64,000 bases of DNA from an uncultured Candidatus Saccharibacteria bacterium (GTDB lineage: Bacteria; Patescibacteriota; CAZHWT01): assembly GCA_964554805.1 (NCBI GenBank), contig CAZKPX010000001.1:381798-445797 (forward strand), written 5' to 3'. A program made the position numbers and the translations under genes. Numbering within the stretch: position 1 is the stretch's first letter; every line of letters begins with the position of its first letter. Below, in pieces: positions 5,270-57,800 of the stretch. The notes under the pieces were generated by a model, which made no database searches, was not told the DNA's origin, and saw nothing but the letters and a program-made list of their open reading frames with translations.

Positions 5270-6750
<1,481 letters not shown>

Positions 6751-8038
6751 AAGGAGAAATCTATGTGATTTTCATATCACATGGCAGCTGCATTAACCCC
6801 TCTCACGCGGGGGCAGCATGGTCAACTACTACGTTTTAAGTAATTAGAATATGTAGAACGTTTAAGGTGAAAATCTTAAACTATGGTCTCTAAATTCACC
6901 ATACTCCAAAGAATTTAGGCCACTTCCTGTCGTTATGTTGTTGATAAAGGTTCAATAACAGCCCGTTTGACTCTGTCAGCGGGCTGTGTTGTTGTTATCG
7001 TTGGCTGATTTGAGAATTCAGAGCCTTGTAGGGCTGGTGGTAGCTCGATACGTATGGGCGGTTAATTGTTTGGGCAGTCGGTTAAGGGTAGGCAAGAGGG
7101 TTTGTGCATTGTATTGAATAACCAGGCTACTTGTCGATTATTCAAATGGACTGCATGCTGGGTGATTTCTAAAAACTGTTAATGAATTGAGTTTACTTTC
7201 GTTGTATTTATCAGTTGATAATCAAATCTAGACTCTTGCTATCCCTTTTGATCAATATATTTATACATATAGCGGCTGTGTTAGTATTTCCTTATTGCAG
7301 ATCACTTTTGAGGCTAATACTATTCCTTGTTATTTTATATTAAACACTTATTTGTATATTATTTTTAGTTTATTGTGCTAATTCTTTCTATTTTACTCTT
7401 TGCTGATAGTATATTCTAATGTTATCATGTAACATCTATGATTACTTGATTTTTGTATTATTTAAAATATACTAGTTATTTGTAATCTATAGGGTATGCT
7501 GTTCTTTGTATTGTTGAATATTCTATAGACAATTTTATATCCTGTAATGATTGATACTCTATATATCATTTCTATTATTCTAGACTAATTTCAATAAGTT
7601 CTTAATATTGTTCTATTAGATATATTTGTTTATTTATCGTATTTCGTCTATGATTGCTAGATATTTATCTCTGTATGTTTTCTAATGTGCTGTCTAGCTC
7701 TATTTATTATATGTAAACTCAGAATGATATTTATCAATAATTAGCTTTTATTGAGTAATGCATCGGATATCTTTTGTATCATATTTTGATATTCTATAGT
7801 TTGTTGTTATTGTAACATTATAATGGCTTTAGTATCTTTATCAGTATAATTATATTTTTAATGTTTTAATATTTTGATTGTTTGATCGACTGGCATGATG
7901 TTGTAGAATTGTGTTTAAAGTGACTGTTGCTAGAGAAGATAGATTCTGGTATAGTACGCCATGTCTTTAGGCTTTAGATGACCATCTATTGTTACGCATG
8001 GCGTGTGTTTGATACATATTAAGTAACAGTTACATAGT

Positions 8039-8952: not shown

Positions 8953-12025
<3,073 letters not shown>

Positions 12026-12198
12026 TTGAGTTTTTCTGTCAATTTATTGATAGAAAACGCTAAGGTGATCAAGAATTTGATTTCTTCTCACTAAGAATAT
12101 TGACGTCGTGTATATCAAATTTAGTGTCTCGCACTCGCGTGACCGCTTCTGTTTTTCGGTTGTTAGGGTATTCACCCTAAGAAATGCTTTGACAATAA

Positions 12199-12321
12199 TG
12201 TCTTGGTGATTGATAGCGCTGGTGTCCCACCTCTTCCCATGCCGAACAGAGTCGTGAAAGCTGGCAGCGCCGATGATACTTGGATCGCAAGGCCCTGGGA
12301 AAATAGGTCATCGCCAGGACA
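12199..12321 (+). rRNA. rrf: 5S ribosomal RNA
   Basis: gtcttggtgattgatagcgctggtgtcccacctcttcccatgccgaacagagtcgtgaaagctggcagcgccgatgatacttgg...catcgccaggac matches the 5S consensus; the two ends pair. Confidence 0.85.
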
Positions 12322-12350
12322 TTGAGGTTAAAGCCGAAAAATACCACTCG

Positions 12351-12378
12351 AAAGGGTGGTATTTTTGTTACTGGTATA
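12351..12378 (+). terminator. rho-independent terminator of the rRNA operon
   Basis: ataccac-tcgaaagg-gtggtat followed by ttttt, read directly after 5S. Confidence 0.75.
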
Positions 12379-12387
12379 ATTAAATCT

Positions 12388-12765
12388 ATGGCATTTCCTG
12401 TTACTCACATTATGGTGGCTCAAAAATTGAAGACTAGAGATTTAATGAATGTCAATGAGAGGGATTTAATTTTAGGTACAAGCTTTCCTGATATACGCTA
12501 TCTGGGGTTAGTGGCAAGGGAGCAAACTCATGTTGAAAGCAGTCTGAGTTATATAGAAGCCTGTCAGACCTTGCCAACTTTTGAGTTGGGGGTATGGTTA
12601 CATATCAGACTTGATCGAGTGCGAGAAGATTTTTATGAGAAGCGAGGCATTTATGATAAGGTTTCTAAAGAGCAGGCAATTTTTAATGCTACGAAGTTAA
12701 TTGAAGATGAACTGTCATTTAATATTATTGGTGATATGAATAAATACGGAATCAATTTTCTCTGA
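12388..12765 (+). CDS. hypothetical protein; the reading frame appears to continue in the +1 frame to 13018, so this may be a frameshifted gene
   Basis: ATG at 12388 (MAFPVTHIMVAQKLK...) preceded by an extended -10 element tggtataat; after the stop at 12763-12765 the +1 frame reads SEVLAQEIVGELTSKDVDRWHGYLSSYVKSSPSVKSYALFARKLGMPESLIMQQAVYYKQIKTDPELFNLVKMFVGQADELVRQS with no stop until 13018. Confidence 0.5.
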   Translation: MAFPVTHIMVAQKLKTRDLMNVNERDLILGTSFPDIRYLGLVAREQTHVESSLSYIEACQTLPTFELGVWLHIRLDRVREDFYEKRGIYDKVSKEQAIFNATKLIEDELSFNIIGDMNKYGINFL

Positions 12766-13101
12766 GGTATTAGCTCAAGAGATTGTTGGCGAATTAACCT
12801 CTAAAGATGTAGACAGATGGCACGGTTATTTAAGTTCTTATGTTAAATCCAGTCCTTCCGTTAAGTCTTATGCATTATTTGCTAGGAAGCTTGGCATGCC
12901 AGAATCTTTAATAATGCAGCAGGCTGTGTATTATAAGCAAATTAAAACTGATCCTGAGCTATTTAACTTGGTGAAGATGTTTGTCGGGCAGGCAGATGAG
13001 CTTGTTCGTCAGAGTTAGAAAAGGTGTAGGATTTTGTAGGACTTTCGGAATGTGAATTGAGCTAACTTTCGGGGAATGATGCAATCTGATAGAGTGGACG
13101 C

Positions 13102-13674
13102 ATGATTACTTTTCGTTTGGTTCATGAAGCTGATTTGCCGATTTTGGCTGACTGGTACAAAGATCGGTTAATTATTGATTGGTACAACAGTGGGGACGAA
13201 TTAGGAGGGCTGGCTTCAGTGGATAGATATGCCAACGAATTTGGACAAGCTTTGGTAATTGAGCTGGATGGTCGGGCTGTTGGTTTGATGGATGTGGAGT
13301 TTGCCGAAGATGGTGTGGTTCATATTGCCTATTTTATTGGGGCAGCTGAGAAGCGAGGGCATGGATGGGGTGAGCAGATTATTGAAGCTTTTAAGATTTA
13401 TGCTGCCAATCGGGACTGGACTACCATCTATGCTAAGGTATGTGTCGTTAATTATCCAAGCTGGCGAAGCCTGGAAGAAGCTGATTTTGTCCTGGTGGAT
13501 CGGAAACCGGCAGTCTATATCTTCAAAAATGCTCCGGCAATAAAGTTTGATGAGATAGTGTGGGGATGGGGCAGTGTTTTTGATGACAAAGTTTCAAGCC
13601 AATTGAAGGTCCAATTGGATCGAGAATCAGCAGATTTAAAGAATTGGTACAGTAGATTACGTAAAAGCAGTTAA
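13102..13674 (+). CDS. GNAT-family N-acetyltransferase
   Basis: Acetyl-CoA-binding-like region IGAAEKRGHGWGEQIIEAFKIYA in a fold of about 190 aa; family call made from motif only. Confidence 0.55.
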   Translation: MITFRLVHEADLPILADWYKDRLIIDWYNSGDELGGLASVDRYANEFGQALVIELDGRAVGLMDVEFAEDGVVHIAYFIGAAEKRGHGWGEQIIEAFKIYAANRDWTTIYAKVCVVNYPSWRSLEEADFVLVDRKPAVYIFKNAPAIKFDEIVWGWGSVFDDKVSSQLKVQLDRESADLKNWYSRLRKSS

Positions 13675-13897
13675 ATATAAAGCGATTGCCTCCTGCTTGC
13701 CTGTTTTGAGGGGCTGGGAGGGGGTTAGGAGTGATTATTGGGGGTGGGTAATGTCTTTTGTTGTCTATAAATTATGGTCTATCTAGGGTGCTTTGGGGCG
13801 GTCTAGGAATGATTTTGATGCGGGTGGATTTGCTTTGAGAATTTTGGTGGAGGTGTGTATAGTTGGAGATGGGCAGTAAAGAAAATAAGGAGGTTGT

Positions 13898-15094
13898 ATG
13901 GGCTGTGTGGCTGTGGTTGGGTTGCAGTATGGGGATGAGGGTAAGGGTAAGATTGTTGATTATCTGGCGGCTGGGTGTGAGGTGGTGGTGAGGGGGAATG
14001 GTGGGGCCAATGCGGGGCATACGATTGTGCTGGAGGATGGGCAGGCTTTGGCTTTGCATCAGATACCGTCGGGGATTAGTCACGACAAGACTTTGAATAT
14101 TATTGGTAATGGTTGTTTTGTGGATATTGTGAAGCTGGTGGGCGAGATGGAGGCTGCTGGTCAGGTTGGCTTGGATGTATCGCCAGACAGGTTAAAGATT
14201 AGCCGGACAGCTCACCTGGTGCTGCCGATTCATAAACAGAGGGATGCGGAGCGAGAAGGTGGAGACAAAGGGCAGGGTAGCACTAAGGCAGGGATTGCTT
14301 TTGTGGCGGCAGATAAGGCCATGCGAGAAGGGGTGAGGGTGGAAATTTTGGAGCAATGGAGCAGGGATGAATTGGTAGCTTTGGGCGGGCAGGAGTTTGC
14401 TGAGGCAGCAGAGCAGTTGAAGGCGTATGTGTGCGACAGTGTGAGCTTGATTCAGGGCTTGCTGGCGGAAGGGAAGAAGGTGTTGCTGGAGGGGGCTCAG
14501 GCTTTTGGTTTGGATATTAACCATGGCAAGTATCCGTATACGACTTCGTCTGATACGACGGTGGCTGGGTTGATGAGTGGGACGGGGGTTAATTATAAGC
14601 AAATAGATCGGGTGGTGGGAGTGGCCAAGGCTACGCCATCGAAGGTGGGCGGAGGAGTGTTTGTGACGGCTATTACTGAGACGGCGGTGGCGGAGCGGAC
14701 TCGGGGTCAGAAGGGGGCGGTAGATGCTGAGTATGGGGCTACTACTGGTCGAGAGCGAGAGGTGGGCTATCTGGATTTGGTGGCCTTGAGGCGAGCGGTG
14801 CTGGTCAATGGTGTTGATGAGCTGGCTTTGACCAAGTTTGACTGCTTGATTCGCCACGGAGTCACGACTAGGGTGGCGGTGGCCTATGAGGTGGATGGGC
14901 TGAGGGTGACTGATCCGCCGGCTTCTAATAGTGATTTGGCTCGATGTCAGGCGGTTTATGAGGAACTGCCTACCTGGGAGGATGAAGATTCAGTTGAGGC
15001 TAAGGCTTATATTCAGCTGGTGGAGGATTATGTGGGGGTGCCGGTGACGATGATTGGCAATGGGCCGGAGCGGGAGCAGTTGATAGTTCGGTAG
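13898..15094 (+). CDS. purA: adenylosuccinate synthetase
   Basis: N-terminal VVGLQYGDEGKGKIVDYLA (GDEGKGK P-loop) and GNGGANAGHT motif. Confidence 0.85.
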   Translation: MGCVAVVGLQYGDEGKGKIVDYLAAGCEVVVRGNGGANAGHTIVLEDGQALALHQIPSGISHDKTLNIIGNGCFVDIVKLVGEMEAAGQVGLDVSPDRLKISRTAHLVLPIHKQRDAEREGGDKGQGSTKAGIAFVAADKAMREGVRVEILEQWSRDELVALGGQEFAEAAEQLKAYVCDSVSLIQGLLAEGKKVLLEGAQAFGLDINHGKYPYTTSSDTTVAGLMSGTGVNYKQIDRVVGVAKATPSKVGGGVFVTAITETAVAERTRGQKGAVDAEYGATTGREREVGYLDLVALRRAVLVNGVDELALTKFDCLIRHGVTTRVAVAYEVDGLRVTDPPASNSDLARCQAVYEELPTWEDEDSVEAKAYIQLVEDYVGVPVTMIGNGPEREQLIVR

Positions 15095-15182
15095 GGATTT
15101 ATAAAAATATACAAGCTTGCAGCTCTGAGTCGGTTTCAGGTTTCGGGTGTTGGGGTTTCAGTAGCAGGGAGTATGCTGTTTC

Positions 15183-15231
15183 CCTGAAGCCTGAAGCCTG
15201 AAGCCTGAAGCCTGCAATCTGAAACCTGAAC
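15183..15231. repeat. (CCTGAAG)x4 heptamer microsatellite with a degenerate tail
   Basis: cctgaagcctgaagcctgaagcctgaagcctgcaatctgaaacctgaac read directly; a cagggag...tccctg hairpin sits upstream. Confidence 0.85.
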
Positions 15232-15250
15232 GGGTTGGTTTTTTGACTGA

Positions 15251-15282
15251 ATGTACATTTAAGTGTATATTTAAATGTACAT
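15251..15282. promoter_or_regulatory. perfect inverted repeat that abuts the antitoxin start codon and is a likely operator for toxin-antitoxin autoregulation
   Basis: atgtacatttaa-gtgtatat-ttaaatgtacat immediately 5' of the ATG at 15283. Confidence 0.55.
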
Positions 15283-15552
15283 ATGAAATATATTACTAGC
15301 ACTGAATTACGAACTAAATCTAAGGAATTGATCGAAGCCTTGCGAGAGGGGAATTCGGTGGTGCTGATTCATCGGTCGAAGGAAGTGGGGACGATTGCTC
15401 CACCTAAGGCGGAGAAGCCAGCAAAGCTTTTTAATGCTAAAAAGTTTATGGAGGCAGCTAAGGAGCTTGACCTTCCTCAGACAACTAATGAGGAGCGTGA
15501 AGCTAGCTATCGTCAGCATATTGAAAAGAAATATGGCAAGCATCTGGATTGA
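15283..15552 (+). CDS. Phd/YefM-like antitoxin
   Basis: 89 aa; N-terminus ITSTELRTKSKELIEALREGNSVVLI resembles Phd/YefM; overlaps the downstream PIN gene by 20 nt. Confidence 0.6.
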   Translation: MKYITSTELRTKSKELIEALREGNSVVLIHRSKEVGTIAPPKAEKPAKLFNAKKFMEAAKELDLPQTTNEEREASYRQHIEKKYGKHLD

Positions 15553-15910
15553 CGCTAATTATTTTATTGATTTTGCTGAGTTGCGGAGCGATGTGCGTAT
15601 AGCCGACTTTGATGGTCATATACTATGGTTGTCGCCGTTATCTGTCCACATCCTTTGCTATGCTTACAAATATCCTATGCCTGACAGCGCTCCGATTGGT
15701 TTATTAGAGGGGTTTCATTTGCAGCCCTTTGATGAAAATGTTTTGCATCAGTCTATGCTGGGTCCCACTACTGATTTGGACGATAACATTCAGCTTCACA
15801 GTGCTATTCGGGCCGAGGCTGATTATTTTTTAACTAACGATAGAAAGTTGCTTAAGCTGGGTTATTTTGGGGAGATGGAGATTGTCAGTAGTGTGAAAGA
15901 GGTTGGGTAG
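15533..15910 (+). CDS. PIN-domain toxin (VapC-like)
   Basis: ATG at 15533 inside the track ORF 15395-15910; MASIWIDANYFIDF...TNDRKL has the conserved acidic residues of a PIN domain in a protein of about 125 aa; overlaps the antitoxin stop. Confidence 0.65.
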   Translation: MASIWIDANYFIDFAELRSDVRIADFDGHILWLSPLSVHILCYAYKYPMPDSAPIGLLEGFHLQPFDENVLHQSMLGPTTDLDDNIQLHSAIRAEADYFLTNDRKLLKLGYFGEMEIVSSVKEVG

Positions 15911-16221
15911 GTTCATTCTATCTCCGCTCGGGCTTCATGGTCGGGTATTGTGATTTGTGTTCTAACCCACCTTAAAGGTGGTTTACCTAGGCAACCTGCA
16001 AGTAAGCATGTGTAATAACACCCAAGCTTACTTCAGATAAACCGACCTTAAAGCGAGATCAATGTGGCTTTGATATGAGTCGTAAGGTTTAGTGTATGGT
16101 TTGAGGCTGGCTTTGAATTGGATGGCTGAGGGAATAGGGGGATTAGGGTTCATTGTGGTGCTTATTTATTTTAAGGCTAACTCTGTTGAACAAGGTTATG
16201 ACTTAGGCGTATAGTTGATTT

Positions 16222-16857
16222 ATGGATATCAAGCAGAACATAATGATCGAGCCGCTATTTCCTGCTGAAGAATCTTTTCTGCCTAAGGGTTACAGCTTAG
16301 AAGAGGCCCAAGGGCAAGGCGTGTCGTTGGTGGTTAAGGATATGGGCGGGAATGGGCCGGCGGTATGTGTTTGTTTGGCTAATGATGAGGCACGATACTA
16401 CACTATAGATATTTTAAAGACGATTGGCGGTTTGGCTATTATTGTGGTGGGGTTGTTATTTACTCCTGCAGTAGATGCTAATTTTTACAACCAAGCGCAT
16501 GATGGACTGGGGATTTCGATACATCCCATGCTGATTATCGGACTAGGCTTGGTGGCTTTTGCGGTGAGTATTTATTTCAAATCACGCAGGTTGGCAAGCT
16601 GGTATGTGTCGACTGGGCATAGTCGTGAGTGTGCTAAGAGGCGGGGCTTAATTGAATCATTGTCAGTGCAAACAAGGTATGGATATACATTGCGTAGCCC
16701 GGGCAAATCCTATGCAGCTAATTTGAATGACGGGCAAGCATCGGGCAAGCAGCATTTACTGGGTATGTCTGTGTCTCGGACGGTTTGGTATGTGGCTATT
16801 TGTGCTGCGGTAGCGCTGTTGTTTGCACTAGTGGCGGTGGTGACAGTTTTTTATTGA
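16222..16857 (+). CDS. uncharacterised membrane protein; first of a tandem paralog pair
   Basis: Shares with 17314-17925 the motifs D-x-GG-x-G-P/S-x-VC-x-C...ARYY-T/S, G-H-S/A-x-x-C-A-x-RR-x-x-I-x-SL, and hydrophobic segments. Confidence 0.6.
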   Translation: MDIKQNIMIEPLFPAEESFLPKGYSLEEAQGQGVSLVVKDMGGNGPAVCVCLANDEARYYTIDILKTIGGLAIIVVGLLFTPAVDANFYNQAHDGLGISIHPMLIIGLGLVAFAVSIYFKSRRLASWYVSTGHSRECAKRRGLIESLSVQTRYGYTLRSPGKSYAANLNDGQASGKQHLLGMSVSRTVWYVAICAAVALLFALVAVVTVFY

Positions 16858-17313
16858 GTCTCTATGATGGTTGGCACTGTCAACTAAAGCGCTATAGTGG
16901 TCTTATGCCTGAAGTATTGTCTGGGATTTTTGCCAAAAGGGCATAGTTTGGAGGAGCCTGAGAGGCTTTTGGTCTCTGATGGGCCGGGAGGCAGAGGGCC
17001 GAAGGTCTGCTGTTCCTGAGGAGTTCGGGCTTTCCATGCTCGCGCAGTTCTCAGAAATGTAAATTTCCTGCGAGCTGGGCTGTGCGCGGCAACCTCTGCA
17101 CACTAAATGACCGGAGGCCATTGCTGATGGCTAATGGCTGATAGCTTATGCCATGAACTGCTTGAACCGGTTGGTTTTGTAGAGGTTGAGATGCTTCGGA
17201 AGTAAGTTCCTAGCTATACTTCGGGACTTTGAGGAGTAGGATCTGACCATCAGCAATCAGCAATGCTTGTGCTTGTACTTGCTCTCGTCCTGTAGGAGTG
17301 TATACTAGCAAGT

Positions 17314-17925
17314 ATGTCTGAAGAGCCTGTGGGTAATTTTTTACCTAAACAAGATTTTATTGATAGCTTAGAAGATACAGGGCAGATGGTGGTTGACCCA
17401 GGTGGATCGGGGTCGCCGGTGTGCATCTGTGATAAAGGGGAGCTTGCTCGCTACTATAGTGGCGATATGATCGGCATAGGCCTTATTTATAGCCTGTATA
17501 TTTTATTTGGGATTTTCTTAATGTGGTTGTGGCTGGCTGGATCTTCAGGGCTGTGGTGGGGAGGTTTTGTTGTTGTGGGAATTTTTCTCTGTCCAGTGAT
17601 TTTTATATACATGGGATTCTTGTCTCGAAGAGATTGGTATGTACAACAGGGTCATGCGGAGAACTGCGCAGTTCGACGAGCCGTTATTGATTCATTAGCA
17701 TATGGCAGAAGAGGGAGAATATTTCAAACGTCAGGGGATGCAGTATATGGCAGAAGAGGGAAAATAATTCGAACGCCAGGGGATGCATATGATAAGGATT
17801 ATGTAAAAGCTCACCCAGGCGCAGCAACATTGTGGAGTAAGTCGATTGTTAGAATAGGGACGATGGTGGTTTTGTGCTTGATGGCTGCACTTATTATGGT
17901 AGGGGCTACTTTGTGGCTTGGTTGA
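17314..17925 (+). CDS. uncharacterised membrane protein; second of the tandem paralog pair
   Basis: PGGSGSPVCICDKGELARYYS and GHAENCAVRRAVIDSL correspond to MGGNGPAVCVCLANDEARYYT and GHSRECAKRRGLIESL in 16222-16857. Confidence 0.6.
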   Translation: MSEEPVGNFLPKQDFIDSLEDTGQMVVDPGGSGSPVCICDKGELARYYSGDMIGIGLIYSLYILFGIFLMWLWLAGSSGLWWGGFVVVGIFLCPVIFIYMGFLSRRDWYVQQGHAENCAVRRAVIDSLAYGRRGRIFQTSGDAVYGRRGKIIRTPGDAYDKDYVKAHPGAATLWSKSIVRIGTMVVLCLMAALIMVGATLWLG

Positions 17926-18151
17926 AGTCGATTGGTGGCCATTCAGTCGCTATGTTAGTCGTTGAGGGATTAGTATTAATTACATTACCATGGATAGAAT
18001 TAGCCATTGCAAGACAGGGTTGCCCGTTGAAGTAACGGGTTTTTTACGGTATAATGGGCGGGAATTACGTGGGCATGTTTTTGGCGTGTGTACGGTAATA
18101 TCTTATGTAAAGGTGTGCTGAATCTTCGTATTCAGTCAGGTGTTTTATTTT

Positions 18152-19231
18152 ATGGCAGAAACAGCTGCAAAAGAAAAGACAAGCGAAGCTATGACTATGG
18201 AGGAATTGTTGGCCAACGAAAAGCCAATTGTTCAACTACAGCGAGGCGATGTTGTCGAAGGAACCGTTATCGAAAAGATGGGTGGTGAAATTTTGGTTGA
18301 TGTGGGAGCCAAGTCCGAAGGAGTTGTGCCTTCTAGTGAAGTTCGTGAAGAAAAGGAAATGGCTGAAACTCTTAAGACAGGCGACGCTTTGTTGGTATAT
18401 ATCGTATCGACAGAGAATGAGCATGGCCAGGTTCAATTGTCATTGAAGAAGGCAGCTATTGCCCGTAAGTGGATTGCTTTGAAGAAAGCAGCTGAGGATG
18501 ACGAAGTGTTGACCGTTAAGGTTTTGGAATACAACAAGGGTGGTTTGATTGTTGATTACCAGCGTATTCGTGGATTCATTCCATTCTCTCATCTGGTATC
18601 CGGTCCGGCTCGAACTGCTACTCCTCAGGAAGTAACTGATGAGCTGAATGCCTTGGTCGGTCGCGAGTTGTCGGCTATGATCATTGAGGCTGAGCAGAAG
18701 ACAAATCGGTTGATTTTGTCTGAAAAGAAAGCTCGTCAGGATGCTGAGCGTGAAAAGAAGGCTAGTTTGATGGTTAACTATCGCCTTGGTCAGGTGGTTG
18801 AGGGTAGCATTACTCGTATTATGCCTTTTGGCCTGTTGGTAGATATTGGTGGCCTTGATGCGCTGGTTCACGCCACTGAAGTTAGCTGGGATAAGTCTTC
18901 CGACTTTACCACTAAGTATCAGTTGGGTCAGAAGATCGAAGTTAAGGTTATTGAGCTCGATGAAGCTAATGGCAAGGTTAACTTGTCTATTAAGCAATTG
19001 TCTCAAGACCCATGGGAAGATCGTTCCGGCAAGATAAAGACCGGCGACAAGGTTAAAGGTTCTGTGACTAAGATTACCTCTTACGGTATTATCTTGGATA
19101 TTGATGGTATTGAGGGTCTATTGAAGACCGATCAGGCTGACATTAAGACTGGCGATAGCGTTGAAGTCTTCGTAACTGAAGTTGACGCTACATCTCGTCG
19201 ATTGAACGTGTCTAGCGAGAAACCTGAATAA
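18152..19231 (+). CDS. rpsA: 30S ribosomal protein S1, short form with four S1 domains
   Basis: Repeated S1 (OB-fold) domains: [62 protein letters not shown]; start taken at MAETAAKEK. Confidence 0.8.
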
Positions 19232-19242
19232 GCAAAGCTTGT

Positions 19243-19318
19243 TCAGGTTTCGGATATGGAGACACGGATATCGGATATAGTGAGTTTTCTATATTCGATA
19301 TCCTATCTCCAATATCCC
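19243..19318. repeat. Family B palindromic repeat between rpsA and clpC
   Basis: ggtttcggatatggagacacggatatcggatatagtgag...ctatattcgatatcctatctccaatatcccg; homologous to the insertion inside 23S. Confidence 0.8.
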
Positions 19319-19332
19319 GACAAAGGAGGGAT

Positions 19333-21897
19333 ATGAAGCATATAACACAACGATTTAGTCAAAACGCTCGAGAGGCATTGGTTAAATCACAATCTATTGC
19401 CAGAACGGAAGCTCATTCATTTGTGGCCACTCATCATTTATTGTTGGCCTTATTGCAGCTACCTGAGTCTTTGGCTTATAAAATGCTAAAGGATGGTGGG
19501 GCTGATCTGGTTAAAATTACTGAGATCTGCAACCGGGTTATTTTTAAACAACGCCAGGAGCAGCAGACGCAAGGCATTGAGGATGAACTAAAAATAGTTA
19601 TTCAGTATGCTTTTGAGGAAGCCGCTGATCTGGAATCGGTCTATGTGGGGACTGAGCATTTGCTATTGGGGATTATTGGCCTTGATCGTAGCCTAGCAGC
19701 TCAGATATTGACCAGCAATAAGGTGGATCTGGAAGACTTAAGGCTGAAGGTGCATGAATTGAGCTTGTTCTCTGATGCTTCGTATAAATATAGCCGTTCT
19801 GAAACATTTGAAGGCAGCATGCTGGAACAGTTTGGCCGCGATTTGACCAAAGAGGCCGCCATAGGGAAGCTGGATCCAGTTGTTGGTCGAGAGAATGAAA
19901 TAAAGCAATTAATCCAAACGCTGTCACGTCGAACCAAGAATAATCCAATTTTGTTGGGTGAATCCGGTGTAGGTAAAACTGCTATAGTCGAGGGTTTGGC
20001 GCAACAGATTGTTGGTCGCGAGGTTCCGGCCTCGATGCTAGGCAAGAGAGTAGTGTCTCTTAATATCGGCTCATTAGTGGCCGGTACTAAGTTCCGTGGT
20101 GATTTTGAAGAACGGGTTATGAAAGTATTGGCTGAGATTCAGGAAGAAGGCAATATTATCTTGTTTGTTGATGAACTGCACACTCTTCTGGGGGCGGGCT
20201 CGGCTACCGGCAGTTTGGATGCTGCCAATATCCTCAAGCCAATGTTAGCCAAGGGTCTTATTCAGACAATCGGAGCAACTACGCTGGACGAATATCAGGA
20301 GTTTATTGAAGAAGATGCTGCTCTGACTCGTCGCTTTCAGCCTATTATGGTAGAGGAGCCGAGCCCAGAGCAGACTGCGACTATTTTGAAGAGAATTAGC
20401 CCTCTTTACGAAACATTCCATGGAGTTCGTTTTGAGAAGTCTGGTTTGGAATTGGCAGCCCAATTGGCTCATCGCTATATTACTGAGCGGCGTCTGCCTG
20501 ACAGTGCTATTGATGTTATGGATGAGGCTGCTTCTCAGGTTAAAATCGCAAAAGCTAAGCGGTCGATTGTTGAGACTGAGATGCAGCAGCGGATCGAATT
20601 GCTGGCTCGCCAAAAAGAAAAAGCTGTTGAAGAGCAGCGTTATGATCAGGCAATGGAATTGCGCAAGAAAGAGATGGTTATTCAAGCGCGACTGGATAAG
20701 CGTCAGGCTAAGAATAAAAAGCCATCTGTGCGCAGTTTGCCGGTGGTCCATCGTCAGGATATCGCAGCCGTGGTGGCTAATTGGCTAAATATGCCGTTGG
20801 AAGATATTACTCAAGAAGAGACTGCTAAGTTGTTGAGCATGGAAAAGGACTTGCAGCAGAGGATTATTGGCCAGGATGAAGCTATTGCATTGATTAGTCG
20901 GTCATTGAGACGATCACGGGTTGGCTTGGCTAGCCCCAATCGGCCAATTGGATCGTTCTTGTTTATGGGGCCTAGTGGTGTGGGTAAGTCTGAAACAGCC
21001 AAAGCCTTGGCCGAGCTGTTGTTTGGAGATGAATCGGCCTTGATCAAGCTTAATATGTCTGAGTATATGGAGCGCTACAGTGCGTCTACCTTGATTGGCG
21101 CACCAGCAGGCTATGTTGGGTATGAAGAGGGCGGTAAATTGACAGAAATGGTGCGCAGGAAGCCTCATTCGGTGGTGCTGTTTGATGAGATAGAGAAAGC
21201 TCACCCGGATATTTTTAACTTACTACTTCAGGTGTTAGAAGATGGAGAGCTAGTTGATAGTAAGGGGCGCAAAGTTGACTTTAAGAATACTTTGATCATA
21301 TTCACCTCTAATGCTGGCATTGAGATGATGGCCCAAAAAGGCAATATCGGCTTTAGTTTGGCCGGGACTATGGAAGAATTAGAAGAGCAGCGGGTGGCTG
21401 ATGATAAGCATCAGCTTAAGGATCGGATGCTGGAAAACTTAAAGGAAACCTTTAGGCCCGAATTCTTAAATCGATTGGGTGGGATGGTGGTGTTTAATAG
21501 TCTTACCGAGGATCAAGCTGAATTGGTGGCGGCTTTGTTGCTGGACGATTTGAATGACCGGCTGAAGAGTAAGCGGATTAAGCTGAAGATTGATAAAAGT
21601 GTTTATCACTATCTGGCCAAAGAGGGGACCAGTTTGGATATGGGTGTGCGTCCGATGCGTCGCTTGGTAGAGCGGGAGATTGAGGATGTTATTGCCGAAG
21701 GCTTGCTGCAAGACACCTTTGCTCCGGGCAAAACGATCCTGATTAAGTCGGGCAGCAAAGATGGGCAGTCTGCCTTGAAGCTGGGCGTTTGGGAATCAGC
21801 TAAAACCAAAACTAAGAATAAGACTAAATCCATCTCTGATACATCCAAGTCTGCGAGTAAGAAGTCTACTCGATCTACATCCAAAATAACCGCTTAA
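19333..21897 (+). CDS. clpC: Clp protease ATP-binding subunit ClpC-like (two AAA+ modules and a ClpP-binding IGF loop)
   Basis: Clp N-terminal domain; Walker A motifs [15 protein letters not shown] and [15 protein letters not shown]; short middle domain; KGNIGFS loop; low-complexity K/S/T-rich C-terminal tail. Confidence 0.8.
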
Positions 21898-21918
21898 AAC
21901 AATTGAGGTATTAAATTT

Positions 21919-23262
21919 ATGCCAGCTGGGTTCGTGAGTGAATATACATGTCAGCAATGCGGAGCAACCTTTGTTAAATGGCAGGGAAAATGCAGCAATT
22001 GTGGGGCTTGGAATAGTTTGGTTGAGGCTATTGTAAGTAAGAAGGAGAAGAAAGAAGGGAGGAGTAGTGGGGGTAACAAGGGGCGACTTCACCTAGCGGA
22101 GTCACAAGTAACCAGCTTGCTCGATGATATTAAGACTGATCAGTTGCCTCGGATTTCTAGTGGGTTTGAGGAATTGGATCGAGTGTTGGGCGGTGGAATT
22201 GTGCCGGGCTCGGTGGTGCTGATTGGCGGAGAGCCCGGAGTGGGTAAATCAACGCTATTGTTGCAGGTTATTTTGAAAACTGGTGGCTTGTATGTTAGTG
22301 CCGAAGAGTCGCCGCATCAGGTGAAGCTACGAGCTGATCGAATGGATATTCCTTTGGCGGGTCAGGTTAAGCTGCTTAATACTAATAATGTGGATCGGGC
22401 TATTTTGGCCGTCGAGGAGGGCAAGAGCTTGCCTTTGGTTATCATTGACTCCATTCAAACTATGGCTACTGATGACCTGGAGGGAGTTCCTGGTTCGATC
22501 GGGCAGGTTCGAGAGTCGGCTCACCGATTAGTTAATGTGGCTAAAAAAGCTGGCGTGCCGATATTTATTGTTAGCCATGTCACAAAAGAGGGTGCGTTGG
22601 CTGGCCCTAAGGTGTTGGAGCATGTAGTGGATGCGGTTTTGTATGTGGAAGGCGAGGAGATGTCGCTGGTGCGATTGGTTCGAGGAACCAAGAACCGATT
22701 TGGGGCAGTTCATGAGGTCGGTTTGTTTGAGCTGACCGAGACCGGCATGAAGGAAGTCTTGGATGCTGCTCAAGCTTTTGTGTCTGAAGGCGACTTAGCG
22801 TCTGGTTCTGTGCTGACGGTCAGCATGGAGGGTCTGCGGCCGATGTTGTTGGAAATCCAGGCTTTAAGTAGTAAGACTCACTTTGGTTTGCCGCGGCGGA
22901 CGGCTAATGGGATGGACTATAATCGATTGCTGATGTTGCTGGCAGTGCTGAGCAAGAGGACTAAGGTGCGGCTTGATGATCAGGATATTTATACAAATAT
23001 TGCCGGAGGGATGAAAGTTAAAGAAACAGCTGTTGATTTGGCGGTTTGTCTGGCGGTTGTATCTTCAGCCTTGGATATCTCTTTGCCGCCCAAGACGGTG
23101 GTTTTTGGTGAGGTGAGTTTGTCGGGAGCGGTGAAGGCGGTAGTGGGGCAGAAGAAGCGCTTGGATCAAGCCAAGAAGCTTGGTTATAAGTCATTTATCA
23201 CTGCTGATACAGCTAAAACACTTAATCAGGCCTTGAAGCAGGCATTTCCGGATAAATTTTAA
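21919..23262 (+). CDS. radA: DNA repair protein RadA/Sms
   Basis: Zinc ribbon CQQCGATFVKWQGKCSNCGAWNS, Walker A GGEPGVGKSTLLLQ, Lon-like C-terminal domain. Confidence 0.9.
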   Translation: MPAGFVSEYTCQQCGATFVKWQGKCSNCGAWNSLVEAIVSKKEKKEGRSSGGNKGRLHLAESQVTSLLDDIKTDQLPRISSGFEELDRVLGGGIVPGSVVLIGGEPGVGKSTLLLQVILKTGGLYVSAEESPHQVKLRADRMDIPLAGQVKLLNTNNVDRAILAVEEGKSLPLVIIDSIQTMATDDLEGVPGSIGQVRESAHRLVNVAKKAGVPIFIVSHVTKEGALAGPKVLEHVVDAVLYVEGEEMSLVRLVRGTKNRFGAVHEVGLFELTETGMKEVLDAAQAFVSEGDLASGSVLTVSMEGLRPMLLEIQALSSKTHFGLPRRTANGMDYNRLLMLLAVLSKRTKVRLDDQDIYTNIAGGMKVKETAVDLAVCLAVVSSALDISLPPKTVVFGEVSLSGAVKAVVGQKKRLDQAKKLGYKSFITADTAKTLNQALKQAFPDKF

Positions 23263-47069: not shown

Positions 47070-47070
47070 A

Positions 47071-47178
47071 AATCAAAGGTAAAAAGGCAAAGGGCAAAAA
47101 TTAAAGTGTAAAATCAAAGATAGTATGCATTCCTTTTTACTTTTAACTTTAATTTTTGCCCTTTGCCTTTCGACTTAT
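47071..47178. repeat. Family A palindromic element, copy A3 (short form: arms back to back)
   Basis: aaaggcaaagggcaaaaattaaagtgtaaaatcaaag ... cttttaacttttaatttttgccctttgccttt. Confidence 0.85.
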
Positions 47179-47195
47179 GATTTTGGAGTTCCCCT

Positions 47196-52495: not shown

Positions 52496-52958
52496 GGCAA
52501 AAAAGGCAAAAGGCAAAGGGCAAAAAAGGCAAAGGGCAAAGGGCAAAGGGCAAAAATTAAAGTTAAAAATATAAAGTGGTGGAATTGTCTTTTGTCTCTT
52601 GAATTTTGATATATAACCTCGGGATTCATTTGTTTCACATCAAGTGCTGGTCTCTGAATCCCCGCAGCCGAGTTGGCTGCATCAATTGCAGGGGGGGGGT
52701 GTCATTATGTTTGTCCTGGATTGCCACTCCGCCAGTCGGCGGCTCGCAATGACATGGGGGAGGTGTCGCTATGTTTGTCCTGGATTGCCGCTCCGCCAGC
52801 TGGCGGATCGCAATGACATGAGGGGGGGGTGATAGTTGGATTGGGCGTGCGGAGTTTATCCTGATCCAATCGGGGCTCGCCATGACGGCGAGGATTGTAA
52901 GTAATCTTTGATTTTTAACTTTAATTTTTGCCCTTTGCCCTTTACCTTTTGACTTACT
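52496..52958. mobile_element. Family A element, long form: Family A terminal inverted repeats flanking a 330-bp cargo
   Basis: Left arm ggcaaagggcaaagggcaaaaattaaagttaaaaatataaag (52496-52575); right arm ctttgatttttaactttaatttttgccctttgcc (52908-52958); the arms are reverse complements and match copies A1-A3. Confidence 0.7.
52701..52895 (+). repeat. tandem 65-nt units (two intact, one degenerate), each a hairpin-containing module ending in a G-run
   Basis: Unit gtcattatgtttgtcctggattgccactccgccagtcggcggctcgcaatgacatggggg repeats at 52701-52764 and 52765-52830; ccgccag-nn-ggcgg hairpin; G-runs of 9 at 52691-52699 and 8 at 52822-52829. Confidence 0.75.
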
Positions 52959-54893: not shown

Positions 54894-57800
54894 ATGCTTG
54901 ACTGGAAACGATTACTCCTGATAATTGGTGTTTGTATAACTGCTGCAGTTCTTGCTGTGGCGATTTTGAATTTTGAGCAGGTTCGGTCTCTGATAATGGG
55001 TCGGGCTGACTTGGGCGATGCCAGGACTTTGAATGGCATGACAGCGGATGAGCTGCTGGCCCTGAGTAAGCCTTTGGATGCCCGGACTTTGAATGGTCAG
55101 CCGGGGTTGTATTATGTGACGGCCGAAAACCTGGTCGGCATCATCGCCCCTGAGCGTTTCTCCGCCTATGATTCCCTGGTGGCTCAAGGCAAGATAGATC
55201 CGGATTCCCAACTGATTACTAATAAGAATTTCCCTAGCCTTCCGAAGGCTAGCCTCGAATCGCCTTCCGAAGGCTCGGGGGTTGGGCAGAGTGATTTGGA
55301 GGCTTTGGCTGCGGGTTTGCGGGTGGAGATGAGTCAAACGTATGTGTCTGAGGTGGAGGCTGGATTGGGGTTGAGTGGGGGTGGAGGATCGGGTAAGGTG
55401 GCTTTGAATATTGTACCGGGAGTGGGGATTATCATTCAGAATGGTCAAGTGATAGCTGCTCTGGGAGATTCGGTAGATTTGCTGGCGGAAGTGGCTGGAG
55501 TGCTACAGATCGCTCATGGGGGCATAGGGCTCAGTTCGCTGATTACTGATGGGCAATTGCTGATGGCTAATGGTGGTGGATATGAGGGTGGGATTTTGGC
55601 GGCGGGGGATGGGGTAGAAATTGCACGAACTGGTAATACTTTTACGTATAGCTTGGATGCGACGGTCTGTCGGACTTCAGGGAACTGTTCGGGAGCTGGT
55701 GGCTCAATTGTGGGTGCTGGAACAGCTGGGCAGTTAGCTTTCTTTACTGATGGCAGCACGTTGTCGAGTGAGGCTGGTTTGAGCTGGAACTCGGGTACTG
55801 ACAGCCTGACGGTGGCAGGTCAGTTGAATGGAGCCAGTGTGAGTACCGGCTGGGTGGATGTGACAGGGCAATATCGGGTTAACGGGGTGGCTTTGAATAC
55901 GACTCATGTCTTGGAAGGCACTAATCTGTACTGGACTCAGGGACGATTTGATACGGCCTTAAGTGACAAAACTACTGATGATCTGGCTGAGGGTTCTGCT
56001 AATCTGTTCTGGACCCCGGCCCGCTTTAATGCTGCTCTGGCAGGCAAATCTACGACTGATGTCGTTGAGGGAACTAATCTGTACTGGACTCAGGGGCGGT
56101 TTGATACGGCTTTCCTGGCTAAGGATACTGATGATCTGACTGAAGGCAGCACGGCTCTTTTCTGGACTAATAATCGGTTTGATCTACGGTTGGCTACCAA
56201 GTCGACTTCGGATATTGGCGAGGGGACAAATCTGTATTACACGGCTCAGCGGTTTAATGACGCCTTTGCTGGTAAGTCGACCACTGACTTGGCTGAGGGG
56301 GTTAATCTTTATTACACTGATGGTCGGGTGTCTGGCAATGCTGATGTGGCGGCCAACACACTGGCTCGCCATGTGGCTGCTACCGTCTCGGATAGTTCAA
56401 CGATTGATTTTAGCATCATCGGCCAACAGATCTCAGGTTCAATTATTCAGTCTGGAATTCAGACTTCTTTGATTACTAATGACGCCGGCTTTATCTCGAC
56501 TATCTCGCTGGCCTCGTTTGATACTGATGACCTGGCTGAGGGATCGATTAATAAGTATTTCTCGGATACTTTGTTTGGCGCTTCATTGGCCACTCGGACC
56601 AGCGATGATCTGGCTGAGGGCTCGGTTAATTTGTTCTTTACGACCGGCCGTTTTGATGCAGGATTTGGCGCAAAGACTTCAGATAACTTAGCAGAAGGAT
56701 CGGTCAACCGCTACTATTCGGATGCCTTATTCGGCACTTCGTTGGCTTTGCGGGATAGTGATGAGGTGGCAGAGGGGTCGACTAACCTGTATTACTCGTT
56801 GAGTCGGTTTGATGCGGCATTTGATAGCAAAACAACTGACAATTTGGATGAGGGTACTAACGCTTTGTACTGGACGGATAACCGTTTTGACCTGCGGTTG
56901 GCGACTAAGTCTACTACAGATATTGTCGAGGGGACGAACTTATATTTTACTCAATTACGGGTGTCTGCTAATGCTGATGTAGTGGCTAATGCGGCGGCTC
57001 GGCATGATGCGGCTACGGTGGGTGATAGTGCGACGCTGGATTTGACGATAGCCGGGCAGTATATTACGGGTACGGTGATTCAATCAGGGATACAGACTTC
57101 GCTGATCAATAATGATGCCGGGTTTGTTGCCAATATTTCCAGCTTTGATACGGATAATCTGACTGAGGGATTGCTTAATCTGTATTGGACGGCAGGGCGG
57201 TTTAATGCGGCCTTTGGCGGTAAGTCGACGACTGATTTGGCTGAGGGGACTAATTTGTACTATACCTCGGTGCGGTTTGATGATGATTTTGAAGGCAAGA
57301 CGACTGATGATTTGAGCCAGGGCTCGACTAATCTTTATTCGCAGTGGTTGAATAATAGTTCGAATATTACTTTTGGTAATAGTGTGGCCATTGGCACAGC
57401 TACGGCTCCGGAGGCTACCTTGGATGTGGAGGGGACATTGAGGGCTAGTGGAGCAGTGACGCTGGCTAATTACACCACTAATGGGGGCATTTTGTATGCT
57501 AATGGTTCAGGCGTATTGAGCCAGTTGGGTCTGGGGACGACTGGGCAATGTCTGGTGTCAACAGAGGGTGTGCCGGCCTGGGGTTCTTGTGCGGCGGCCG
57601 GGACGGTGACGGGCAGCGGCTCTGCGGGCCGGTTGGCTTTATTTGATGGGGCGAATAGTCTGACCAGTAGTGCGGCTTTGTCCTGGAATAGTGTGTCGGG
57701 CCTGCTGGCGATTGATGGTGGTATTTCGATAACCGGCGATATCATTCCAACGACTGACAATACTTATAGTCTGGGTTCGCCGGAGATGTCGTGGATGGAT

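Follow-up and report, generated by a model that had tools for sequence, protein, structure and literature searches.

The stretch of DNA considered here most probably carries, at a probability that we place near 70%, a lineage-restricted orphan tandem family in a deep-branching Saccharibacteria genome that has been caught in the course of gaining and losing copies. Two intact and anciently diverged paralogs would encode three-pass membrane proteins. A third copy located between them appears to have been disrupted and truncated, such that its N-terminal domain would account for the GC-rich portion at the 5' end of the spacer. The other ~290 nt would then be unassignable debris with a chance inverted repeat built of heptamers and with no demonstrable riboregulator. 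The relevant features are listed in Table 1, where the coordinates refer to the window, namely the complete stretch of 64,000 nucleotides that was analyzed.

Table 1. Features of the locus and the evidence on which each is based.
Feature	Coordinates	Strand	Details and evidence
ORF of 40 aa containing a single hydrophobic helix, immediately before paralog 1	16092..16214	+	Smith-Waterman; direct repeats D4 and D6
Promoter-like site upstream of paralog 1	16186..16215	+	TTGAAC-18-TATAGT; consensus match only
Paralog 1 (gene 1)	16222..16857	+	211 aa from ATG 16222; three-pass membrane protein; ORF
Two promoter-like sites	16840..16898	+	GTGACA-17-TATGAT and TTGGCA-16-TATAGT; consensus matches only
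ORF of 40 aa with GTG start, covering the remnant frame	16897..17019	+	Translation
Disrupted third paralog, N-terminal domain only	16905..17019	+	Translation, tblastn, Smith-Waterman, DNA alignment
Rest of spacer, 294 nt	17020..17313	+	Alignments, Rfam, fold z-score -1.11
Inverted repeat	17119..17265		Arms 17119-17137 and 17247-17265, 19 nt at 89%, 109 nt between arms; repeat search
Paralog 2 (gene 2)	17314..17925	+	203 aa; architecture and motifs as in paralog 1; ORF
In-frame tandem duplication inside paralog 2	17697..17786	+	45 nt, 89% identical; direct repeat D1, protein alignment
Terminator-like hairpin, ~100 nt after paralog 2	18022..18050	+	8 pairs followed by a T-run; terminator search

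The two open reading frames had been described in the first-pass annotation as tandem genes for proteins of 211 and 203 aa, and both were recovered at these sizes on the plus strand. Their paralogy was likewise borne out, with 28% identity (E 2e-17) by BLASTP and 35% identity in the MAFFT alignment. As can be seen from the alignment, the two signatures that had been proposed, D-x-GG-x-G-[PS]-x-V-C-x-C-x5-ARYY and G-H-[SA]-x-x-C-A-x-RR-x-x-I-[ED]-SL, are present in both proteins exactly as written, and the several transmembrane helices correspond in the hydropathy plots to three hydrophobic segments per protein. In paralog 1 an acidic N-terminal domain bearing D-x-GG-x-G-P-x-V-C-x-C-x5-ARYY is followed by a TM1/TM2 hairpin, a basic loop with G-H-S-x-x-C-A-x-RR-x-x-I-E-SL, and the C-terminal helix TM3. 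The 45-nt duplication in gene 2 doubles the YGRRG-x-I-x-x-T/S-x-GDA unit of its basic cytoplasmic loop, of which paralog 1 has a single diverged version. Paralog 2 is identical to the database protein P0002. Gene 1 contains an alternative start, ATG 16243 (Met8), that would give a protein of 204 aa, the length of the database protein P0001. In a DNA alignment of the three 5' ends this codon falls opposite the start codons of gene 2 and of the third copy, and gene 1 thus probably begins at ATG 16243 rather than at 16222.

The region from 16905 to 17019 is a remnant of a third paralog. A tblastn search against the six-frame translation of the 64-kb window gave 56% identity over 32 aa (E 5.8e-4), and the Smith-Waterman score of 73 was reached by none of 500 shuffles, which averaged 33.7±4.6. 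When the remnant is compared with gene 1, the residue is kept at 18 of the 27 aligned codons, in 13 of these 18 by way of a different codon, with a dN of 0.30 and a saturated dS. The ATG at 16905 opens a frame that begins MPEVLSG. At ~16923-16931, two nucleotides are missing relative to the GGT AAT TTT TTA of gene 2, after which the copy reads FLPKGHSLEEPERLLVSDGPGGRGPKVCCS up to a stop codon, and the ATG is out of frame with the FLPK encoded at 16927. The C-x-C motif is reduced to CC, a TGA stop follows immediately at 17017-17019, and the ARYY block is lost behind it. Beyond the stop no segment resembles the membrane helices. This disruption of the frame is identical in two independent public assemblies. 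The features by which a pseudogene is recognized, namely similarity at the protein level, location on the same strand, a tandem position, and a disrupted reading frame, are all found here. The fragment had been missed in the first-pass annotation of the 5' part of the spacer.

Recoding of the TGA was rejected because read-through past 17017-17019 meets a TAA ~85 nt later and yields no segment like a membrane helix. The two promoter-like sites lie directly upstream of the remnant start codon and may represent the former promoter of the third copy. The small ORF that precedes paralog 1 has been called as a gene in public assemblies. It weakly resembles TM1 of paralog 1, with a score of 44 against 31.4±3.8 for shuffled sequences (2 of 300 reached the score), and on this borderline similarity it may be a further remnant.

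Derivation from a paralog can be demonstrated for only the first ~115 nt of the spacer. In the other 294 nt, alignment scores against the paralogs stay within the shuffle range in every frame, and the segment contains neither an ORF resembling a membrane helix nor a known RNA family. The notion that the whole spacer is a colinear decayed copy was rejected on the basis of these scores, which were obtained with three gap schemes. Also rejected was the assignment of 17042-17052 as an inverted fragment of gene 2. These 11 nt are the reverse complement of 17659-17669, and ~0.6 chance matches are estimated for 2.2 kb. Frame 1 of the spacer contains the string TGGHC*WLMADSL and terminates with a hydrophobic string, AMLVLVLALVL*.

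The spacer itself measures 456 nt, close to the 450 nt first reported, and it is indeed GC-rich, at 0.50 overall and 0.55-0.57 in 16907-17118, where other intergenic regions range from 0.30 to 0.52 and the window averages 0.459. The complementary segments that had been noted also exist, in that 17120-17130 pairs perfectly with 17247-17257 over 11 nt. The arms of this inverted repeat are built of tandem heptamers (GCTGATG GCTAATG GCTGATA and ATCAGCA ATCAGCA), and the left arm, 17120-17137 (18 nt), is repeated without change at 55556-55573, within a large ORF. An insertion between the arms was rejected, as the flanks show no target-site duplication and the 64-kb window contains no second copy of the element.

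The earlier statement that neither protein could be assigned to a family has held. All of the sequence libraries, together with a full HMMER profile scan of 1.84 billion representative proteins, returned only the two proteins themselves, as did a word-indexed search of 5.8 billion proteins with both paralogs. Family membership required a profile HMM hit that reached the curated cut-off, or E<=1e-3, and no profile match places either protein in a characterized family. The orphan status depends upon the threshold, given that a search of so large a library would not reveal relatives that score below ~45 bits. With Pfam there was no match at the curated cut-off or at E<=1e-3, the best being PhoR (E 0.49) and DUF2975 (E 0.98), both of which cover the membrane helices. 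NCBIfam, PHROGs, and PADLOC gave no match for the pair except phrog_37625 at E 0.29, and the PDB gave no significant match, the best being allophycocyanin (E 0.46). Scans with back-translated patterns found no relatives in metagenome and viral contigs. Models calculated with AlphaFold2 for each paralog from the two-sequence alignment reached pLDDT values of 44.8 and 45.5 and are too poor for a discussion of geometry.

The host is a deep-branching Saccharibacteria (TM7) lineage. Its S1 protein is 75% identical to that encoded in a metagenome-assembled genome of an uncultured Candidatus Saccharibacteria bacterium, and its best non-self PurA match shows 71% identity. The nearest sequenced relatives have neither the paralogs nor conserved synteny. 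When the comparison was anchored on rpsA and purA, different neighbors were found at both genes in these relatives, and no "empty site" could be defined. Local hmmsearch and phmmer runs that covered every ORF segment at seven loci of relatives produced self-matches only. Unannotated proteins of ~204 aa near purA in relatives were rejected as homologues, as they are unrelated soluble proteins. A related locus was not found in any collection searched, and the only further copies, L001 and L002, match the window with 100% identity. The read sets SRR16798008 and SRR16798009 contain the locus. The family is thus an orphan that has been seen so far in only one genome.

Both proteins are under purifying selection. 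Synonymous sites between paralogs 1 and 2 are saturated, with a third-position identity of 0.22-0.33, whereas at the amino acid level the N-domain is 42% and the middle block 51% identical, and different codons are used at 42 of the 62 identical residues. Since the motifs persist despite this saturation, both ORFs are taken to be genuine genes under selection at the protein level. That they might instead be spurious or non-functional open frames giving rise to no real proteins is scarcely credible. Such a reading could draw upon the lack of homologues throughout the searches, the low AlphaFold confidence, and the weak codon-usage score of gene 2 (0.08). In the other two frames of gene 2, however, the scores are -0.45 and -0.82, and gene 1, at 0.30, is typical of the genome (0.18-0.57 for the conserved genes of the window). 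More importantly, two frames of ~200 codons have kept their architecture and both motif blocks in spite of the saturated silent sites, a pattern expected only under selection on the protein and one that the third copy displays as well. This same retention at the protein level in the third copy, seen in its dN and in the 13 of 18 conserved residues specified by codons differing from those of gene 1, raises the question of whether the fragment might still be alive, with the 40-aa ORF translated as a small soluble paralog consisting of the N-domain only. Such a product might, for example, modulate the two membrane proteins. The open frame with its GTG start and the two promoter-like sites just upstream are in keeping with this proposal, which we nevertheless regard as unlikely. 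The ATG that aligns with both intact gene starts is out of frame, the C-x-C that is invariant in the intact copies is not preserved, and the ARYY block is gone. In addition, the 40-aa ORF has a codon-usage score close to zero (-0.06), and no gene is called at 16897-17019 in public assemblies. A disrupted third copy remains the preferred reading of this segment.

The first-pass annotation had viewed the spacer as a structured RNA or attenuator controlling paralog 2, which would operate through the long-range helix 17119-17137/17247-17265. The inverted repeat is certainly real, with its 11-nt perfect core, and one of this length arises in only 4 of 300 dinucleotide shuffles of the spacer; the GC content of the spacer exceeds that of most intergenic regions of the window; and gene 2 has no promoter-like site immediately before it, so that transcription probably reads through the spacer. 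For the 171 nt that surround the repeat, the fold z-score is -1.78 against dinucleotide shuffles, with 6 of 200 folding as well. Cis-regulatory leader RNAs do come to mind where an extended, GC-rich, non-coding region precedes a gene and contains a long-range inverted repeat. Unlike riboswitches and attenuators, however, the spacer shows no Rfam family (0 matches in a cmscan of 15500-18500 at E<=1), no terminator/antiterminator pair, and no significant folding excess, and it is in part a gene remnant. The plus-strand z-scores are -1.34 for the full 456 nt and -1.11 for the 294 nt, the minimum-energy folds of both, including that of the whole spacer, lack the helix in question, and the minus strand scores 0.0. 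No terminator-like hairpin with a T-run occurs between 16858 and 17313. Equally long perfect inverted repeats are found in 9 of the 105 tiles of this size taken from the rest of the window (~9%), mostly coding, and the arms consist of short heptamers in tandem, a pattern of low complexity in which self-complementarity arises readily. The GC-rich part is former coding sequence of the third paralog. On the whole, regulation by the spacer RNA is very unlikely. RNase P RNA, tmRNA, and other known RNAs in the spacer were rejected, as neither Rfam at E<=1 nor ARAGORN found anything; at gathering scores Rfam matched only rRNA and tRNA in the whole window. The suspicion of RNase P arose from "GAGGAGTTCGGGCTTTCC", which loosely recalls its P4 region. 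With respect to transcription, the hairpin at 18022 is the only terminator-like site between the 3' end of paralog 1 and rpsA, and we infer that the locus is co-transcribed from ~16186 to this site. The neighboring genes are purA, a Phd/PIN-like pair, rpsA, a clpC-like gene, radA, and rho. Given the weak Phd and PIN matches directly upstream (15283-15910), the paralogs could be imagined as cargo of a mobile or defense island, together with these toxin-antitoxin genes, in which they could serve as membrane immunity or abortive-infection proteins. Synteny with relatives breaks at the locus, and tandem arrays with degenerate copies are typical of immunity-gene clusters. We consider this quite improbable, though, for neither protein has a PADLOC or PHROGs match, viral contigs hold no relatives, the composition and GC skew of both genes match those of the surrounding core genes, and no integrase, tRNA gene, or flanking repeat adjoins the locus.

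The distribution of charged residues suggests a topology for the two intact proteins. The N-terminal segment and the middle loop contain 14-15 Lys/Arg residues, whereas the TM1-TM2 loop and the C-terminal end contain none. By the positive-inside rule, both soluble segments are predicted to be cytoplasmic, with the N-terminus lying inside the cell. The acidic N-domain, in which C-x-C is followed by ARYY at the interface with the membrane, and the basic loop behind TM2, characterized by WYV-x-x-G-H-x3-C-A-x-RR, would then occupy the same membrane-adjacent cytoplasmic face. This arrangement would bring the C-x-C and H-x3-C motifs close to the membrane and both onto its reducing side, and a cytoplasmic metal or redox site is plausible. 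Cys 49, Cys 51, His 133, and Cys 137 (paralog 1 numbering) are invariant in both copies, a comparison of only two sequences. The Cys-Cys-His-Cys set would most likely coordinate a single metal ion, probably Zn2+, and such coordination would clamp the N-domain to the juxtamembrane helix.

A mixed Cys/His set is also employed by the zinc-binding anti-sigma (ZAS) domains, such as those of RsrA and ChrR, which coordinate Zn2+ by H-x3-C-x2-C plus an upstream Cys or His, and many anti-sigma factors are membrane-anchored. The paralogs resemble ZAS domains in having H-x3-C in a basic helix, upstream cysteines, and a membrane anchor. They differ in that the C-x2-C half is missing, the sequences reading GHSRECAKRR and GHAENCAVRR with no cysteine at +3, and in that two membrane helices, arranged as a hairpin, separate the candidate ligands. 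The Pfam matches at E<=1 for the pair include no anti-sigma family, and no sigma-factor gene, including that of a partner ECF sigma factor, adjoins it. The identity as a ZAS domain was rejected on two grounds, the missing contiguous H-x3-C-x2-C and the missing adjacent ECF sigma-factor gene.

PMC10003748 describes taxonomically restricted genes of Bacillus that form clusters of homologues, and PMC11293555 is concerned with species-specific orphan genes of gut bacteria. Like bacterial orphan families that form local clusters, the present locus consists of homologues confined to one lineage, arranged as tandem paralogs with a pseudogenized copy beside the intact ones, and encodes short proteins rich in membrane helices. 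It differs from them in that its paralogs are ancient, as judged from the saturated silent sites, and have kept defined Cys/His motifs; the taxonomic range here is judged from a single genome. The ancient divergence combined with the retained motifs argues for a long-standing function and not for a recently born gene. A far bolder proposal would be a new three-pass family in which a split juxtamembrane metal or redox center of C-x-C and H-x3-C acts as a thiol or zinc switch on the cytoplasmic side of the membrane and might be linked to the episymbiotic way of life, with the preserved N-domain fragment as a trans-acting small paralog and the heptamer-repeat hairpin in an RNA role. We would give this combination little more than an outside chance.

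As it stands, the finding has little importance beyond annotation. It illustrates how nothing more than a ruined neighboring paralog may lie behind an extended "intergenic" region of high GC content that contains an inverted repeat, and it records a protein family known so far from a single genome, in a Saccharibacteria lineage that has been sampled sparsely. Should the conserved Cys/His residues prove to form a metal or redox site close to the membrane, the family would be a minor newcomer among the membrane-anchored zinc or thiol switches and would offer a handle on the lineage-specific biology of these episymbionts.

The first-pass annotation's two tandem paralogous genes, with their coordinates and lengths, were recovered unchanged. 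Their products align over the full length with 28% identity (BLASTP, E 2e-17), and a MAFFT alignment reproduces exactly the two motif blocks described there, namely D-x-GG-x-G-[PS]-x-V-C-x-C-x5-ARYY and G-H-[SA]-x-x-C-A-x-RR-x-x-I-[ED]-SL. The true start of gene 1 is probably its eighth codon, ATG 16243, which shares a DNA-alignment column with the starts of gene 2 and of a disrupted third copy; the public database entry for the gene 1 product is 204 aa long. The basic loop of paralog 2 tolerates expansion, as it carries a recent 45-nt in-frame tandem duplication (89% identical). The N-terminal blocks of the paralogs share 42% of their amino acids and the middle blocks 51%, third-codon-position identity is essentially random (0.22-0.33), and 42 of the 62 identical residues are specified by different codons. 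The retention of architecture and motifs in both ~200-codon frames after silent-site saturation shows that both are under selection as proteins. Codon usage was scored as a log-likelihood, with 21 conserved window genes as the training set: the annotated frame of gene 1 reaches 0.30 (other two frames, -0.80 and -0.79) and that of gene 2 reaches 0.08 (-0.45 and -0.82); annotated frames of the training genes score 0.18-0.57.

Features of the paralog locus and of other sites in the window
Feature	Positions	Strand	Remarks
Region in rRNA operon	6749-8038		~1.3 kb between 16S rRNA gene end and tRNA-Cys
Heptamer array	15120-15250		3' of purA
Phd/YefM-like and PIN-like genes	15283-15910		directly upstream of the paralogs
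40-aa ORF	16092-16214		upstream of gene 1; weak resemblance to first membrane helix of paralog 1
Paralog 1 ORF (gene 1)	16222-16857	+	211 aa
Disrupted third copy	16905-17019	+	
Inverted repeat of spacer	17119-17137 / 17247-17265		
Paralog 2 ORF (gene 2)	17314-17925	+	203 aa
Terminator-like hairpin	18022-18050		3' of gene 2
Intergenic palindromes	2044-2206; 47070-47183; 52501-52955		tandem 6-7-nt units
Tandem ~62-nt units	52571-52910		between arms of third palindrome

The several transmembrane helices originally noted number three per paralog by hydropathy. Two parts of each protein, its N-terminal segment and the loop that follows the second helix, share one side of the membrane and contain 14-15 Lys/Arg residues between them, whereas the loop joining helices one and two and the C-terminal end contain none; given this distribution and the positive-inside rule, the former two regions are predicted to be cytoplasmic. 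The four invariant Cys/His residues are predicted to be juxtamembrane, on the reducing side. The C-x-C pair, with the interfacial ARYY after it, lies ~15 residues ahead of the first helix, and the H-x3-C pair lies ~12 residues past the second helix in a basic WYV-x-x-GH-x3-CA-x-RR helix. The simplest reading of these residues is a joint candidate Cys2-His-Cys metal site, most likely for Zn2+, that would tie the N-domain to the juxtamembrane helix, and the idea is reasonable. This candidate site resembles only in part the H-x3-C-x2-C site of zinc-binding anti-sigma (ZAS) domains: the C-x2-C half is missing, and two membrane helices separate the candidate ligands. There is no anti-sigma family among their Pfam matches and no sigma-factor gene nearby. 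Membership in the ZAS family was therefore rejected.

The protein family is genuinely unassignable, as the first-pass annotation held. Only noise was returned from Pfam, NCBIfam, PHROGs, and PADLOC, and from a profile search of all PDB sequences. In a word-indexed search of 5.8 billion proteins each paralog retrieves itself only, and a profile of both, run in full with HMMER against 1.84 billion cluster representatives, matches only those two proteins. Metagenome and viral contigs, scanned with back-translated patterns, yielded no relatives. Profile searching placed neither paralog in a characterised family; AlphaFold2 models were also obtained, with pLDDT values (44.8 and 45.5) too low for fold comparison.

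The spacer between the two genes is 456 nt long and, as noted originally, GC-rich: its GC content averages 0.50 and reaches 0.55-0.57 in 16907-17118, towards the upper end of the 0.30-0.52 seen in intergenic stretches of the window (whole window, 0.459). It had been proposed to be a structured RNA or attenuator controlling the second copy. The complementary segments behind that proposal do exist, as an inverted repeat with an 11-nt perfect core within 19 nt at 89%, the arms of which are 109 nt apart and consist of tandem heptamers (GCTGATG GCTAATG GCTGATA and ATCAGCA ATCAGCA). Shuffling the spacer seldom produces an 11-nt perfect inverted repeat (4 of 300), and of 105 same-sized tiles from the rest of the window 9 contain one. 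At E<=1, the stretch 15500-18500 has no match in Rfam. The folding energy of the whole spacer has a z-score of -1.34, that of 17020-17313 one of -1.11, and that of the 171 nt around the inverted repeat one of -1.78; the minus strand gives 0.0. The proposed helix is unused in minimum-energy folds of longer spacer stretches. There is no terminator-like hairpin inside the spacer, the only good one lying beyond gene 2. The attenuator reading is therefore unsupported and unlikely.

A simpler account is that the spacer is a disrupted third copy plus unassignable debris. The frame from 16858 reads "...GFLPKGHSLEEPERLLVSDGPGGRGPKVCCS*" where paralog 1 has "SFLPKGYSLEEAQGQGVSLVVKDMGGNGPAVCVC". This remnant is the third-best match of paralog 1 in a six-frame tblastn search of the window (56% identity, 32 residues, E 5.8e-4), and its Smith-Waterman score of 73 compares with 33.7±4.6 (maximum 52) for spacer sequences randomised 500 times under a first-order Markov model matched in dinucleotide frequencies. 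Its ATG at 16905 lines up with both intact genes' start codons (MPEVLSG versus MSEEPVGN in paralog 2); a deficit of 2 nt against GGT AAT TTT TTA of gene 2 puts this ATG out of frame with FLPK. The C-x-C that is invariant in the intact copies is shortened to CC, followed by a TGA stop at 17017-17019. Relative to gene 1, the residue is kept at 18 of 27 aligned codons, 13 of these by a different codon, with a dN of 0.30 and a saturated dS. The third copy was therefore under selection as coding sequence for most of its history, its disruption coming later, and the spacer's GC-rich 5' part is former coding DNA. The remaining 294 nt (17020-17313) do not match the paralogs significantly, whatever the frame or gap scheme, and sequence for the hairpin of membrane helices is missing. 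Colinear decay across the whole spacer was rejected, "TGGHC*WLMADSL" and the terminal "AMLVLVLALVL*" in the remnant's frame not rising above shuffles. The 40-aa ORF may be a further relic, since its score is reached by only 2 of 300 shuffles.

The left arm of the inverted repeat, ATTGCTGATGGCTAATGG (17120-17137), recurs exactly over 18 nt (blastn E 3.7e-4) at 55556-55573, within a very long + strand ORF that runs off the 3' end of the window. LLMANG is encoded over it both in the spacer frame from 16860 and in that ORF's own frame; chance, microhomology, or a tiny transferred fragment could account for it. At no fewer than three intergenic sites there are palindromes of the form (AAAGGGC)n ... 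AAAAATTAAAGT ... (GCCCTTT)n (12 matches versus 0.03 expected), which resemble a family of repeated hairpin elements spread across the genome and may be bidirectional terminators or small mobile elements. Each of the two ~62-nt units (…TGTCATTATGTTTGTCCTGGATTGCCACTCCGCCAGTCGGCGGCTCGCAATGACATGGGGG…) within the third forms a hairpin; that region contains neither an ORF nor, at gathering score, an Rfam match. The array 3' of purA, (CCTGAAG)x4, could base-pair with a segment rich in GTTTCAGG that lies upstream of it, and a T-run comes next; this is another terminator-like hairpin from short tandem repeats in the same style as the spacer's inverted repeat.

The window contains an rRNA operon, a GNAT acetyltransferase gene, purA, a weak Phd/PIN-like pair, the two paralogs, rpsA, a clpC-like gene, radA, and rho, nearly all genes being on the + strand; G-over-C skew of that strand is very strong and uniform in 12000-22000 (0.1-0.6 in every 300-nt window). 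In the Phd/PIN-like pair, a weak Phd/YefM-like antitoxin gene (Pfam E 7e-4, below cut-off) overlaps a PIN-like toxin gene that is also a weak match (E 0.03-0.05); the two probably form a diverged type II toxin-antitoxin system. In the rRNA operon, tRNA-Cys comes before the tRNA-Ile and tRNA-Ala normally present, the 23S match is 3078 nt long against a 2925-position model, and the region before tRNA-Cys has no ORF of at least 50 aa and no Rfam match beyond a chance-level GcvB (E 0.38).

For the S1 protein, identity to its counterpart in a metagenome-assembled uncultured Candidatus Saccharibacteria genome is 75%, and the best non-self PurA, from Saccharimonadales assemblies, is 71% identical; these values place the genome in a deep, poorly sampled Saccharibacteria lineage. 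The neighbours of rpsA and purA are not conserved in the nearest relatives, and a local profile search of every open frame in those loci revealed no paralog homologue. The only other public copies of the locus, in two Logan assemblies, are 100% identical to the window. With a single genome and no usable structure, its importance is limited. The locus is a taxonomically restricted tandem gene family that gains and loses copies, a well-known kind of family for which PMC10003748 and PMC11293555 provide context.
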